Of a stretch of 64,000 nt of DNA, positions 13,036 to 35,601 are shown piece by piece. This DNA is from Thermoanaerobaculia bacterium (GTDB taxonomy: Bacteria; Acidobacteriota; Thermoanaerobaculia; Multivoradales; Multivoraceae), in the NCBI GenBank assembly GCA_022826745.1, contig JAJDUI010000026.1, positions 22,458 to 86,457 on the forward strand. The letters run 5' to 3'. The notes below the pieces were generated by a model, which ran no database searches, was not told the origin of the DNA, and worked only from the letters and a program-made list of their open reading frames with translations. The position numbers were made by a program, and so were the translations under genes. Positions within the stretch are counted from its first letter, which is position 1; each line of letters starts with the position of its first letter.

Positions 13036-13500
13036 ATGAGATGTCCATTCTGCGGCGCCAACGATGACCGCGTGGTCGACTCGCGCGACGTGCGTGGCGG
13101 GGAGACGGTCCGGCGCCGGCGGGAGTGCCTGAACTGCGGCCGCAGGTTCACTTCCTACGAGCAGATCGAGAACATCGCCTACCGGGTCGTCAAGTCGGAC
13201 GGCCGCCGGCAGGAGTTCGACCGGCAGAAGCTTCTCGGCGGCCTCCTCAAGGCCTGCGAAAAGCGGCCGGTCGGCCTGCCGGCGCTGGAAGAGATCGTCG
13301 ACGAGGCCGAAGCCCTGCTCCACCGCAAGGAGGACCGGGAGATTTCCACCTCGGAGCTGGGCAACTTCGTCATCGACCGCCTGAAGACGCTCGACCAGGT
13401 GGCCTACGTCCGCTTCGCCTCCGTCTACCGGAAGTTCGAGGACGTGGACGAGTTCATGGAAGAGCTGCGGGTACTCCTCGAAGCGTCGCGGAAGGACTAG
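13036..13500 (+). CDS. nrdR: transcriptional repressor NrdR
   Basis: MRCPFCGANDDRVVDSRDVRGGETVRRRRECLNCGRRFTSYE zinc ribbon followed by an ATP-cone. Divergent from hrcA. Confidence 0.93.
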   Translation: MRCPFCGANDDRVVDSRDVRGGETVRRRRECLNCGRRFTSYEQIENIAYRVVKSDGRRQEFDRQKLLGGLLKACEKRPVGLPALEEIVDEAEALLHRKEDREISTSELGNFVIDRLKTLDQVAYVRFASVYRKFEDVDEFMEELRVLLEASRKD

Positions 13501-24994: not shown

Positions 24995-25174
24995 CGACCA
25001 GGCGTTCAAGCCCTCCCCGGGCGCTTTCGCCGTAGACTTGCCGCGCTGCGTCGTGCGGCGCAGGTTCGTGGGGTTCCGGATTGACAAGGTTCTGCTCGGT
25101 GCCGTGAGTTGGCCGAAGCTACACCAAGCACCCAACCACGAGGGGCGATTCCAACAGACCCTTCTCTTGGGCAG

Positions 25175-30291: not shown

Positions 30292-31551
30292 TCACCGCCG
30301 CAGTCGCAACTGCGCCACGGTTTCCAGGTGGGCCGTCTGCGGGAAGACGTCGAAGAAGGCGACGGACTCGAGGTCGAAGTCGCGGGTCAGGTCGCCGAGG
30401 TCGCGGGCGAGGGTGGCGGGATCGCAGGAGACGTAGGTCAGGCGGCGGGGCGCGGCGTTCAGGAGGGCGCTGCGGACCTTGCGCGGAAGGCCGCCGCGGG
30501 GCGGATCGACCAGCACCCGGTCGAGGCCGGAATCCAGACCGGGACCGCCGCGGCGCCGATCGACCCAGCTCTCGACCGCCGATCGTTCGACGCGGCAGTG
30601 GCGGAGCCGGTTGCGGCGCAGGTTGTTCCGCGCGTAGCGGGCGGCCACCGACTCGCCTTCCACGGCGGTGACGGACCCGTACCGGTCGGCGAGTCCGGCG
30701 GTGAAGAAGCCGACGCCGGCGTAGAGCTCCACCGCGGCGTCGCCCTCGAAGGGCCCGACCGCCGACCGCAGCAGCGACTCCAGCAAACCCCCGTGGGCCT
30801 GGAAGAAGCAGCGGGCGTCGTAGCTGAGCTTCCTCCCCAGCAGGTCGATCTCCAGGTCACCACTCGGCAGCCCGTCAACGGGTGGCGCCGCCACCACCGG
30901 ACTGTCCGGCTCCAGACCCGCCGTCGCCAGACTCAGGCGGCTCGGCAGCTTGGTCGAAGCGACGGCCGGGTCGCCAGACAGCGAGGACAGCCCACGCAGC
31001 TCGTTCTCGAGCGCCGGAGCGAGTACCGGGCAGCGGTCGACGAGGACCAGGTCGTGGCTGCGACGCCGCCGGAAACCGACGCCGACGGACCCCTCCGGGG
31101 GCGAGACGACATGGACCTGGGCGCGCAGCCGGTAGCCCCACGCCCTCTCGCCGACCGGCTTCTCGAAGCGGCACGCGGCGAGCTGCGCCGGGTCGATGCC
31201 GCCCAGCCGGCGCAACGTCTCCCTTGCAGCCGCCGCCTTCAGTCCCAACTGCGCCGCGTCCTCGATGTGCTGGAGTTGGCAGCCGCCGCAACGCTCGTAG
31301 AACGGACACGGCGCCTCCCGCCGCAGCGGCCCCGGAGTCTTCACCTCTTCGATCTCCGCGCGGGCGTAGCTCGGGCGGCGCTCGGTGATCCTGAGCTCGA
31401 CCACGTCGCCGGGGGCGGCCCGCGGCACGAAGACCGGCATCCCGCGCCACCGCGCGAGGCCGTCGCCGCCGAGCACGAGCTTCTCGATGGTCAGTTCGAG
31501 GCGATTGATGCCGGCCAGGGCCGCCAGCGCTTCCAGGCGTTCGGCCGACAG
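30292..31551 (-). CDS. rlmD: 23S rRNA (uracil-C5)-methyltransferase RlmD/RumA family (TRAM + 4Fe-4S + SAM MTase)
   Basis: TRAM domain LELTIEKLVLGGDGLARWRGMPVFVPRAAPGDVVELRI. Cys cluster CPFYERCGGCQLQH. MTase motifs LYAGVGFF and DPPRGG. The 5' end is unresolved: the track ORF extends to 31719 through a low-complexity T/A-rich stretch that overlaps another gene, and no ATG/GTG/TTG lies near the expected start. Boundary placed at an in-frame CTG with a GGAAG SD. Confidence 0.75.
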   Translation of the reverse strand: MSAERLEALAALAGINRLELTIEKLVLGGDGLARWRGMPVFVPRAAPGDVVELRITERRPSYARAEIEEVKTPGPLRREAPCPFYERCGGCQLQHIEDAAQLGLKAAAARETLRRLGGIDPAQLAACRFEKPVGERAWGYRLRAQVHVVSPPEGSVGVGFRRRRSHDLVLVDRCPVLAPALENELRGLSSLSGDPAVASTKLPSRLSLATAGLEPDSPVVAAPPVDGLPSGDLEIDLLGRKLSYDARCFFQAHGGLLESLLRSAVGPFEGDAAVELYAGVGFFTAGLADRYGSVTAVEGESVAARYARNNLRRNRLRHCRVERSAVESWVDRRRGGPGLDSGLDRVLVDPPRGGLPRKVRSALLNAAPRRLTYVSCDPATLARDLGDLTRDFDLESVAFFDVFPQTAHLETVAQLRLRR

Positions 31552-31573
31552 CGGCCGCTTCCGGGGAGTCGGC

Positions 31574-31834
31574 TCAGTCTTGGTCGTGGTCGTGGTCGTG
31601 GCCGTGGCCGCCGCCGGTGTGGCGCCGCCCGTGTTCCCAGGCCGGATCCCGGCGCGCGAACTCATCGAGCTCGCGCGGCACTTCGACGAGAGTCCGGCTG
31701 CGTTCCGGGTCGCAGACATCGTTCTCGCACTCGTAGACGTAGACGTTCCAGTCGTCGCGAGGGCGGTAAGCGCAGAGCGTCTGGTAGGTGTCGCAGTAGC
31801 CGCACTTGATCGAGAGGTTGCGGATGTTGATCAC
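31574..31834 (-). CDS. small cysteine-rich protein (putative Zn-ribbon) with His/Asp-repeat C-terminal tail
   Basis: VINIRNLSIKCGYCDTYQTLCAYRPRDDWNVYVYECENDVCDPERSRTLVEVPRELDEF...GGGHGHDHDHDQD. Strong GC3 codon bias despite N/I/Y/K-rich composition argues for real coding. CxxC..C..CxxxxC arrangement. GTG start. Located 48 nt downstream of the TlpA-like gene. Confidence 0.6.
   Translation of the reverse strand: MINIRNLSIKCGYCDTYQTLCAYRPRDDWNVYVYECENDVCDPERSRTLVEVPRELDEFARRDPAWEHGRRHTGGGHGHDHDHDQD
31582..31608. repeat. hexanucleotide microsatellite (GGTCGT)3 plus a degenerate unit
   Basis: Encodes the HDHDHD tail of the small protein on the minus strand. In-frame repeat. Confidence 0.6.
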
Positions 31835-31882
31835 GACGCGATGGCCCTTCCGGTTCGCGGGAACCGCCGCCCGTCCCGGGCC

Positions 31883-32434
31883 TCAGCCGGCGGCGGACGC
31901 GAGCGCCTCCTCGATCGCGTTGCGAACCACGCTGGCTCCGGTGATGCCGATCGAGATGTATGAGAGGTCGCCCCGCGGGTCCAGCACCAGGAGGGTCGGC
32001 AGAGCGTAGAGTCCGGCCGCGCCCATCACCTCTTCGTCGGGGTCCAGCAGCACCGGGTAGCTGAACGGGGTCTTCTCGACGTATCCGCGGACCGTTTCCA
32101 GGTCCTCCCCGCTGTTCAGGGCGAGGAAGGACACACCCCGGCCGGCGTACTCCTCGCGCAGCCGCTCGAGGATCTCCGCCTGGACGACGCAGGGCTTGCA
32201 CCAGCTCGCCCACATGTCGACCACGACGACGTCGCCCCGCAGGTCCGGCGGACCCAGCCGCGATCCGTCCAGCGTGGCCAACTGGAAACTGCTCAGGATC
32301 GGATCGAGTTCCGACACCTCCGGCGGCTCGGCACCCGCGAGAATGCTCGACACGAGGAAGCCGAACACCGTCACCAGGACCGCCCCGGCCACGCCCAGGC
32401 CGACCAGCAGGCCGACCGCCAAACGCCTCGTCAT
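31883..32434 (-). CDS. TlpA/ResA-family periplasmic thiol-disulfide oxidoreductase
   Basis: N-terminal membrane anchor, thioredoxin fold with WASWCKPCVVQAE (WCxxC) active site, and TlpA-like spacing. Confidence 0.8.
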   Translation of the reverse strand: MTRRLAVGLLVGLGVAGAVLVTVFGFLVSSILAGAEPPEVSELDPILSSFQLATLDGSRLGPPDLRGDVVVVDMWASWCKPCVVQAEILERLREEYAGRGVSFLALNSGEDLETVRGYVEKTPFSYPVLLDPDEEVMGAAGLYALPTLLVLDPRGDLSYISIGITGASVVRNAIEEALASAAG

Positions 32435-32469: not shown

Positions 32470-35346
<2,877 letters not shown>

Positions 35347-35489: not shown

Positions 35490-35537
35490 CCACTAGATAT
35501 GGGCATTCATCGGTCTATAGCGCTTTATCGATAAATG
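35490..35537 (-). promoter_or_regulatory. putative tandem NrdR boxes upstream of nrdJ
   Basis: Minus-strand tgcCCATATCTAGTGg (35490-35505) matches 11 of 16 positions of the NrdR box consensus acaCwAtATaTwGtgt. A second, degenerate palindromic site TTTATCGATAAA (35524-35535) sits 32 bp centre-to-centre from the first. Both lie about 140-190 nt upstream of the ATG. NrdR is encoded in this window. Confidence 0.4.
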
Positions 35538-35601
35538 CGGAGCATCTTCGGATAGAAGCACTGGATCCTGCGGATTCGAGGCGGCGATAAGCTCCTCTGC
35601 C

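Follow-up and report, generated by a model that had tools for sequence, protein, structure and literature searches.

The 64,000-nucleotide (nt) stretch of contig JAJDUI010000026.1 from an uncultured Thermoanaerobaculia bacterium analyzed here, referred to as the window, carries on its minus strand four co-directional genes in the order nrdJ, tlpA-like, a small open reading frame (ORF) and rlmD, the last two of which run into each other. The cluster is headed by nrdJ (32470–35346), which encodes a class II ribonucleotide reductase whose orthologues have 954–955 residues with Ribonuc_red_2_N, Ribonuc_red_lgC and TSCPD domains. Next comes the gene for a TlpA/ResA-like, membrane-anchored thioredoxin-fold protein of 183 residues with a WCKPC motif (31883–32434; Pfam Redoxin, E = 1.5e-17), and the small ORF (31574–31834; GTG start, TGA stop, 86 residues) lies 48 nt downstream of this WCxxC protein, as the preliminary description of this DNA had reported. 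The small ORF encodes a member of an orphan family with a predicted Cys4 zinc-ribbon-like core and disordered tail, and its 3′ end contains a hexanucleotide repeat, (CACGAC/CACGGC)n on the coding strand, at 31577–31607. The gene for the 23S rRNA U1939 methyltransferase, rlmD, ends at 30292; its favored start is an ATG at 31665–31663, inside the small ORF, and a further ATG in the same frame at 31719–31717 opens the longest rlmD ORF.

A small cysteine-rich protein family of the Thermoanaerobaculia

The product of the small ORF (MINIRNLSIKCGYCDTYQTLCAYRPRDDWNVYVYECENDVCDPERSRTLVEVPRELDEFARRDPAWEHGRRHTGGGHGHDHDHDQD) had been taken for a genuine protein on the strength of its base composition, and this judgment stands. 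GC content at codon positions 1, 2 and 3 is 0.69, 0.42 and 0.88, a coding signature; 362 homologues were found at E ≤ 0.01 (best 1e-44, 61–98% identity), all annotated as hypothetical and none with a Pfam domain; synonymous codon differences exceed non-synonymous ones against five relatives (for example 24 to 7); and the order of the surrounding genes is conserved. A scan of one genome per GTDB species identified the protein in 344 genomes, the best 80 of which, for which the taxonomy was inspected, all belong to the Thermoanaerobaculia, with the nearest carriers (97–98% identity) being "Candidatus Multivorans" and related metagenome-assembled genomes. A profile search over 1.84 billion representatives recovered only 66 clusters of this family. 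Most of the representatives are small (42–201 residues), a few contain two tandem copies of the domain, and three long proteins (892–2406 residues) gave weak, multi-stretch matches only; none is a fusion with RlmD, as judged by length or match pattern. In the tandem-copy members (P0130, P0132, P0135, P0140, P0146 and P0160) it is mostly the N-terminal copy that is degenerate, often lacking the conserved C-terminal RDPxW segment, the degenerate copy of P0160 being C-terminal instead.

No Pfam or NCBIfam family matches the small protein, and no Pfam match was obtained at E ≤ 5 with any of 27 family members; PHROGs gave nothing below E = 0.1 and a sequence profile search of the PDB nothing below E = 0.88. 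The protein keeps 61–75% identity where RlmD retains only 40–56% and TlpA 38–52%, and must therefore be under strong constraint. The ORF at 31574–31834 is thus a real gene of an uncharacterized family restricted to the Thermoanaerobaculia.

The cysteines are arranged as first described (C11xxC14, C21, C36xxxxC41), with Cys11, Cys14, Cys36 and Cys41 invariant in the family alignment and Cys21 not conserved. Other invariant positions include Arg5, Ser8, Gln18-Thr19-Leu20, Tyr32, Glu37-Asn38, Arg47-Thr48, Glu51-Val52-Pro53, Asp57, Ala60, Arg62-Asp63 and Trp66. An AlphaFold2 model built on the family alignment has a mean predicted local distance difference test (pLDDT) score of 80.5, with values of at least 83 in each 10-residue block over residues 1–70 and below 50 for residues 73–86, so that the model divides into a confident core (residues 1–72) and a disordered tail (residues 73–86). 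The core consists of a β-hairpin (residues 19–26 and 29–35), a third strand (residues 48–53) and a short helix (residues 58–62). The best structural neighbors in two libraries are NrdR zinc ribbons, with weak fold scores, and a Foldseek search of the PDB with the model returned nothing below E = 0.69.

On this model, the small protein can be called a Cys4 zinc-ribbon-like mini-protein; its family is new, although mini-proteins of this kind are known. Its architecture comprises a CxxC motif and, approximately 21 residues further on, a CxxxxC motif on a β-hairpin, beyond which lie a short helix (ELDEFARRDPxW) and a Gly/His/acidic tail that is disordered. With the zinc ribbons of the NrdR N terminus, TFIIS and TFIIB the model shares two Cys knuckles flanking a β-hairpin, in a small, stand-alone protein. 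The small protein differs from them in its second knuckle, which is CxxxxC rather than CxxC, and in the additional conserved helix and Gly/His tail; compared with NrdR-type ribbons it also lacks sequence similarity and an ATP-cone, and its core is mildly acidic (14 Asp and Glu against 11 Lys and Arg). Two other assignments were considered and rejected. Rubredoxin has CxxCG ... CPxCG motifs, where the small protein has CGYC and CENDVC, and is absent from the Pfam results for the 27 members; a Trm112-like methyltransferase activator, considered because the gene adjoins rlmD, found no sequence or fold match. Neither the small protein nor any of its relatives has a signal peptide, and the protein is cytoplasmic. 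The four Cys residues would most likely hold the structural zinc (or iron) ion of the ribbon, which in turn would most likely serve in binding another macromolecule. Of the earlier proposal of a metal-binding or redox partner for TlpA, the metal-binding half is therefore plausible, given four invariant Cys residues and the zinc-ribbon-like model; the partnership is considered below.

The tail, GGGHGHDHDHDQD, is encoded by a microsatellite, as had been proposed: Tandem Repeats Finder reports a period-6 repeat, GTCGTG × 5.2, with 92% matches. The repeat is unique in the window (three overlapping matches against 0.02 expected) and is read as (His-Asp/Gly)n in the small ORF and as poly-Thr/Ala in the +1 frame, that of rlmD. 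Across sister genomes, tails of GGGHD (total length 78 residues), GGGHDHDHD (82), GGDHGHGHDQD and GGGHGHDHDHD (both 84), three different 86-residue versions and GGGHDHDHGHGHDQD (88) were found. Length differences among the eight alleles are all multiples of 6 nt and close neither ORF, and the suggestion that the microsatellite shifts the frame and causes phase variation is accordingly not borne out, since a 6-nt unit cannot shift the frame; a phase-variable contingency locus was rejected on the same grounds. Most relatives, even those 92–95% identical, have 78 residues and end in GGGHD or GGGHE, and one to three His residues in a Gly-rich tail (WHGGxxHAGxxH) are common across the family. The long (HD)n tail is thus not a family feature and is limited to a few closely related genomes, and in-frame slippage of the 6-nt repeat gave rise to the GHGHDHDHDQD tail recently and within this lineage. 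A scan of a metagenome collection with the 19-mer CGGCGCCAYACCGGCGGYG yielded 120 loci, none of which encodes the small protein, the pattern being unspecific in high-GC DNA. A second short repeat (31604–31634; period 14, 2.1 copies, GTGGCCGCCGCCCGT) adjoins the hexanucleotide array in the Gly/His/Arg-coding part of the small ORF.

Metal-handling proteins with His-rich C-terminal tails include SlyD, HypB and UreE. The likeness to these proteins consists of a disordered His/Asp-rich C-terminal tail on a folded domain; the folded domain here is unrelated, and no metal-uptake or maturation genes are linked to the locus. The tail may add some weak metal binding, a minor metal-related role being possible, or it may be low-complexity growth that is close to neutral. 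Its confinement to a few genomes and its variable length argue against an essential role.

The junction with rlmD and the turnover of its start codon

The downstream gene is RlmD at the equivalog level, its product scoring 233.5 bits with TIGR00479 (cut-off 183.55), 31.9 with TRAM (cut-off 21) and 64.5 with tRNA_U5-meth_tr (cut-off 23). The translation carries CPFYERCGGC, a Cx5Cx2C pattern; in Escherichia coli RumA the [4Fe-4S] ligands are provided by Cx5Cx2C and a distal Cys. The protein shares with RlmD (RumA) a TRAM domain, the Cx5Cx2C motif and the methyltransferase domain, and differs from RlmD elsewhere in a lineage-specific N-terminal extension of approximately 25 residues (PRKRPLSAERLEALAALAGINR) with no canonical start beside it.

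The overlap between the 3′ end of the small ORF and the first ∼48 codons of the called rlmD ORF is confirmed. The longest rlmD ORF (30292–31719) shares 146 nt with the small ORF, in whose +1 frame it lies. That no ATG, GTG or TTG lies near the expected start holds for the interval from 31663 to 31477 in the rlmD frame, where none occurs; it does not hold just beyond, as a canonical GTG (Val82 of the long ORF, 31476–31474), the first in-frame canonical start downstream of the small ORF, is present within the TRAM domain. The family models align from residues 72–84 of the long ORF (Pfam TRAM and NF009639 from residues 72–74), and upstream of this aligned region close relatives share the sequence PRK(R/Q)PLSAERLExLAALAGIxRLELTIEK. 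In the window the corresponding 5′ segment (31566–31477), read in the rlmD frame, encodes PRKRPLSAERLEALAALAGINRLELTIEKL, with no canonical start close upstream.

The junction was compared codon by codon over 41 close loci (given here as L numbers), with codons counted from Leu57 of the long rlmD ORF, a CTG at 31551–31549, as codon 0. Over codons 0 to 24, 86% of single-base differences are synonymous in the rlmD frame, compared with 4–10% in the other two frames; the figure in the rlmD frame is 57–70% for codons −5 to −1 and falls to 25% for codons −8 to −6, which look unconstrained. The codons through −5 thus look translated, and therefore rlmD translation begins upstream of PRK and not at GTG 31476. 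A gap of 7 nt separates the TGA of the small ORF (31576–31574) from the conserved PRKRPLS... part of RlmD, and this TGA is overlapped by a GAG codon (31575–31573), codon −8, which takes the place of the rlmD start of sister lineages.

In group B (e.g. L001) rlmD starts with a GTG at codon −8, behind a GGAG Shine-Dalgarno (SD) sequence, and in group C (L022, L025 and L026) with an ATG at the same codon, behind a GGAG-type SD. The members of group E (L004, L011 and L040) retain a spacer of ∼110–175 nt between the two genes that carries a GTG; L215 and L216 have a GTG in a shortened spacer; L213 has an ATG called inside the small ORF in addition to GTGs in the spacer; and L003 and L015 have a GTG at codon −12, inside the 3′ end of the small ORF. 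Groups D and F (eight species loci and four further independent assemblies) have no canonical start before Val82 and share a conserved CTG at codon −7, which sits 7–8 nt after (G)AGG(T/G). Group A, to which the window belongs, comprises 15 species genomes in which codon −8 is GAG, GAA, GAT or AGG and the TGA lies 22 nt before the Leu57 codon; the only upstream canonical starts are the ATGs at 31665 and 31719, both of which are present in all 15 genomes. Set against group B, the window appears to have undergone a 39-nt deletion that took away the spacer, the SD and the first two bases (GT) of the GTG start. A homologous spacer of ∼110 nt is kept in the E and F lineages, which indicates that the spacer is ancestral and that groups A and D are independent deletions.

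Groups D and F, as far as sequence comparison goes, probably start rlmD at the CTG, CUG initiation being the best reading of their junctions. In four group-D genomes the small ORF and rlmD are in the same frame with one TAG between them, and L205 and L207 differ by a 1-nt indel between this TAG and the CTG; the extra G after the TAG in L205 excludes a read-through fusion in this group. Gene calls of the Prodigal type start group-D rlmD at Val82 (393–394 residues in L205 and L206), with the TRAM hit lost or weakened. The resemblance to CUG initiation as measured in bacteria lies in an SD-like element, a 7–8-nt spacing and a CTG where other lineages have GTG or ATG; here it is read from sequence comparison, whereas in E. 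coli CUG was measured to initiate at approximately 1–2% of AUG (Hecht et al., bioRxiv 10.1101/063800).

Several further observations were made at the junction. In L003 (6160–6240) and L015, residue 59 of the small protein, which hardly varies in the family, is changed (F59L, TTC to TTA) and a +1-frame stop results, and a synonymous GGC-to-GGT change creates the rlmD GTG 14 nt before the small-ORF stop; together these look like a paired, compensatory event. The spacer of ∼110 nt is found in L011 (783–969), L004, L040, L023, L028 and L033. In L011 it contains an extra 69-nt insert that recurs elsewhere in L024, L001/L035 and L007 and may be a small repeat element, and its first 32 nt match window positions 25036–25067 at 87.5%.

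Candidate starts of rlmD in the window

The options first raised for the rlmD start were a gene overlap, a non-canonical start and a frame-shifting microsatellite, of which the first two remain live. The favored reading, given about an even chance, is that rlmD starts at ATG 31665 (with ATG 31719 possible), inside the small ORF in its +1 frame. In the sub-clade of the window the spacer was lost and rlmD no longer has its ordinary start; initiation at ATG 31665 would produce a 92-nt overlap and a disordered N-terminal extension of 33 residues on RlmD. The same repeat would then be read as (His-Asp)n in the small protein and as poly-Thr in RlmD, and peptides of RlmD would include AGIRPGNTGGATPAAATATTTTTTK or TEPTPR. 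This ATG is favored because codons upstream of CTG 31551 still look translated, because rlmD occupies the only one of the three frames of the small ORF that has an upstream ATG, and because L003 and L015, nested within the group, combine a stop downstream of that ATG with the compensating GTG inside the small ORF. It is also favored by the called start inside the small ORF of L213 and by the long, low-complexity N-terminal extensions that are usual for RlmD in this class. What is shared with other long same-strand overlaps is a downstream ATG in the +1 frame of the upstream gene and a repeat read in two frames. At 92–146 nt the overlap would be far longer than the usual 1–4 nt and, unlike other long overlaps, it would be recent, arising by spacer loss, with sister lineages using GTG, ATG or CTG starts elsewhere.

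A number of points weigh against initiation at ATG 31665. Overlaps of 92–146 nt are unusual and often annotation artifacts. The ATG is preceded by a 3-nt SD-like match only (GAG, with a 4-nt spacer), although the SD score does not discriminate between the candidates (3 nt each, and 4 nt for GTG 31476), because the SD-like matches before the first starts of 36 ORFs in the window barely exceed the within-gene background and SD use seems weak across the genome. Both ATGs are formed by rare GAT codons (GAT:GAC is 7:79 in neighboring genes), which occur also in sister lineages with other starts, so that their retention may reflect inheritance and not selection. The open +1 frame was discarded as support, since no synonymous change could create a stop in it downstream of Asp57. 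Finally, CTG 31551 gains in prior probability from the CTG that groups D and F appear to use.

That rlmD starts instead at CTG 31551, 22 nt after the small-ORF TGA, possibly by termination-reinitiation and with no long overlap, is a serious alternative that nevertheless remains doubtful. Groups D and F, with their conserved CTG at codon −7 and no canonical start before Val82, speak for it, and the SD-like (G)AGG(T/G) together with the indel between L205 and L207 makes a CUG start of rlmD very likely in the genus. At Leu57 every group-A and group-E genome has CTG and L009 has TTG, compared with CTC or CTT in most of the groups that use other starts, and for an rRNA methyltransferase 1–2% of AUG initiation could suffice. 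However, 85 of 147 Leu codons here are CTG, more than any other, so that its presence carries little information, and the TTG of L009 may be due to chance, TTG making up ∼7% of Leu codons. The GGAAG upstream of CTG 31551 is not complementary to the anti-SD core. Moreover, unlike an ordinary start, this CTG stands downstream of codons that still look translated: within group A, codons −5 to −1 (P-R-K-R/Q-P) are 57% synonymous in the rlmD frame, compared with 19–26% in the other frames, and their peptide is identical to that of lineages in which their translation is certain.

It is highly unlikely that rlmD starts at GTG 31476, which would leave the conserved 90 nt upstream untranslated. This codon is the first canonical start after the small ORF, and its equivalent in group-D genomes is the one chosen by Prodigal-type callers, as in L205 and L206. 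The 25 codons upstream of it are nonetheless those with 86% synonymous differences in the rlmD frame, the segment they form holds the first TRAM strand (Pfam TRAM and NF009639 aligning from residues 72–74), and gene calls truncated in this way lose or weaken the TRAM hit. Least probable of all is recoding or an artifact, in the form of a repeat frame shift, a +1 frameshift or read-through fusion, or an assembly error. In its favor, rlmD follows the small ORF in the +1 frame here, and in four group-D genomes one TAG is all that separates the two in frame 0. Against it, both frames stay intact in every allele of the 6-nt repeat, the frame relation varies (+1, 0 and, in L205, +1 nt) such that no single mechanism fits, the 66 family representatives include no fused protein, the pre-stop codon GAC (GGC in some) with TGA or TAG gives no slippery site, and 15 or more independent genome assemblies show this junction.

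Taken together, the account of a class-specific Cys4 gene, in-frame slippage of its tail, loss of the spacer and an rlmD start at an ATG within the small ORF is given slightly better than an even chance of being correct.

Gene neighborhood and significance

Comparison of Thermoanaerobaculia loci revealed a class-wide gene order of nrdJ, tlpA, small gene and rlmD. In distant members of the class a 354-residue type-II-GAPDH-like gene directly follows the small gene (36 loci, 68–79% identity; e.g. L050:4331–5395 and L002:5457–6518). It matches the type II (archaeal-type) GAPDH model weakly (77.8 bits against a cut-off of 185), and an MBL-fold gene often comes between it and rlmD. Both genes are missing from this locus in the Multivorans lineage, and the GAPDH-like gene is absent from the entire window. 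The ancestral order of the class is nrdJ, tlpA, small gene, (GAPDH-like, MBL-fold), rlmD, from which the Multivorans lineage lost both middle genes. In L214 (1501–3237; 4.2-Mb genome) a PQQ_2 repeat protein, and not rlmD, stands next to the small gene, which indicates that adjacency of the two genes is not obligatory even within the close clade. Promoter, terminator and Rfam scans of the cluster found nothing, a literature search on the taxon returned nothing bearing on this locus, and four long "ORFs without a start" flagged by a script were stop-to-stop artifacts.

The position of the small gene two genes downstream of nrdJ, in an order kept across the class, raised the possibility that its product acts on its own as an NrdR-like zinc-ribbon regulator that binds DNA and controls the nrdJ-tlpA-small-rlmD cluster. 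NrdR zinc ribbons are its best structural neighbors in two libraries, and a conserved AT-rich motif lies upstream of nrdJ. This role is nevertheless unlikely: the fold scores are weak, a blastp comparison with E. coli NrdR gave E = 9.5, there is no Pfam hit and no NCBIfam hit at E ≤ 1, and the 86-residue protein has an acidic core and no ATP-cone. Furthermore, the genome has its own canonical full-length NrdR at 13036–13467 on the plus strand (49% identity to E. coli NrdR over 144 residues, E = 1.5e-43), which would explain the operator-like motif. The AT-rich island upstream of nrdJ (35490–35540, within 69% GC DNA) holds a perfect palindrome, TTTATCGATAAA (35535–35524), and the motif ATATCTAGTG (35500–35491), which 24 related loci have also conserved upstream of nrdJ and which resembles a NrdR-box half site. 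The true start of nrdJ is likely the ATG at 35346–35344, preceded by GGGAGGGAG, the longest ORF (to 35493) being over-extended.

The upstream tlpA-like gene matches Pfam Redoxin at 64.2 bits (cut-off 26.6) and does not reach the equivalog level for ResA (76.5 bits against 170) or TlpA (30.4 against 230) in NCBIfam; it is TlpA-like at the family level only. It shares with the TlpA/ResA oxidoreductases the Redoxin domain, the WCxxC motif and a membrane anchor, its translation beginning with MTRR and approximately 25 hydrophobic residues, a pattern that probably places the thioredoxin domain outside the cytoplasm. The idea that the small protein is its redox or metal partner draws on the Cys-rich composition of the small protein and on the adjacency of the two genes (48 nt) throughout the Multivorans clade and in some distant genomes such as L043, L045, L054, L064 and L065. 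Synteny with tlpA holds only in part, in that the gene order is kept across the class but in many relatives ∼2 kb of opposite-strand OmpA/VWA genes lie between tlpA and the small gene. With these intervening genes, a membrane-anchored TlpA and small proteins that throughout the family lack a signal peptide, and with Cys21 unconserved and four invariant Cys residues that look like a metal site and not a redox CxxC pair, the partnership is highly improbable and that part of the preliminary description is not supported.

The flanking tlpA-like and rlmD genes are ordinary and the tail is a mundane coding microsatellite, which illustrates that such a repeat need not imply phase variation. The collision of the two ORFs is a recent junction produced by spacer loss, instructive for annotation and translation and not a new mechanism, and no major concept is changed by these findings. 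Gene callers either truncate RlmD in these genomes, with part of TRAM lost, or over-extend it, and the present analysis corrects hypothetical or missed calls of the small gene in the Thermoanaerobaculia, among them abundant sponge symbionts. The family, which 344 species genomes carry and no Pfam or NCBIfam model covers, is a candidate for a new domain entry, and its junction with rlmD offers a natural series of start-codon turnover at one gene, from GTG and ATG through a probable CTG to a start inside the upstream ORF. On a more far-reaching view, which is advanced only tentatively, rlmD of Multivorans, an essential-looking gene, may have repeatedly lost its canonical start and be read either from a CUG, possibly fed by terminating ribosomes, or from an ATG buried ∼90 nt inside the small ORF; the microsatellite would then tune both the His-Asp tail and the poly-Thr N terminus, and the zinc-ribbon protein would be a new, strongly constrained factor specific to the class.

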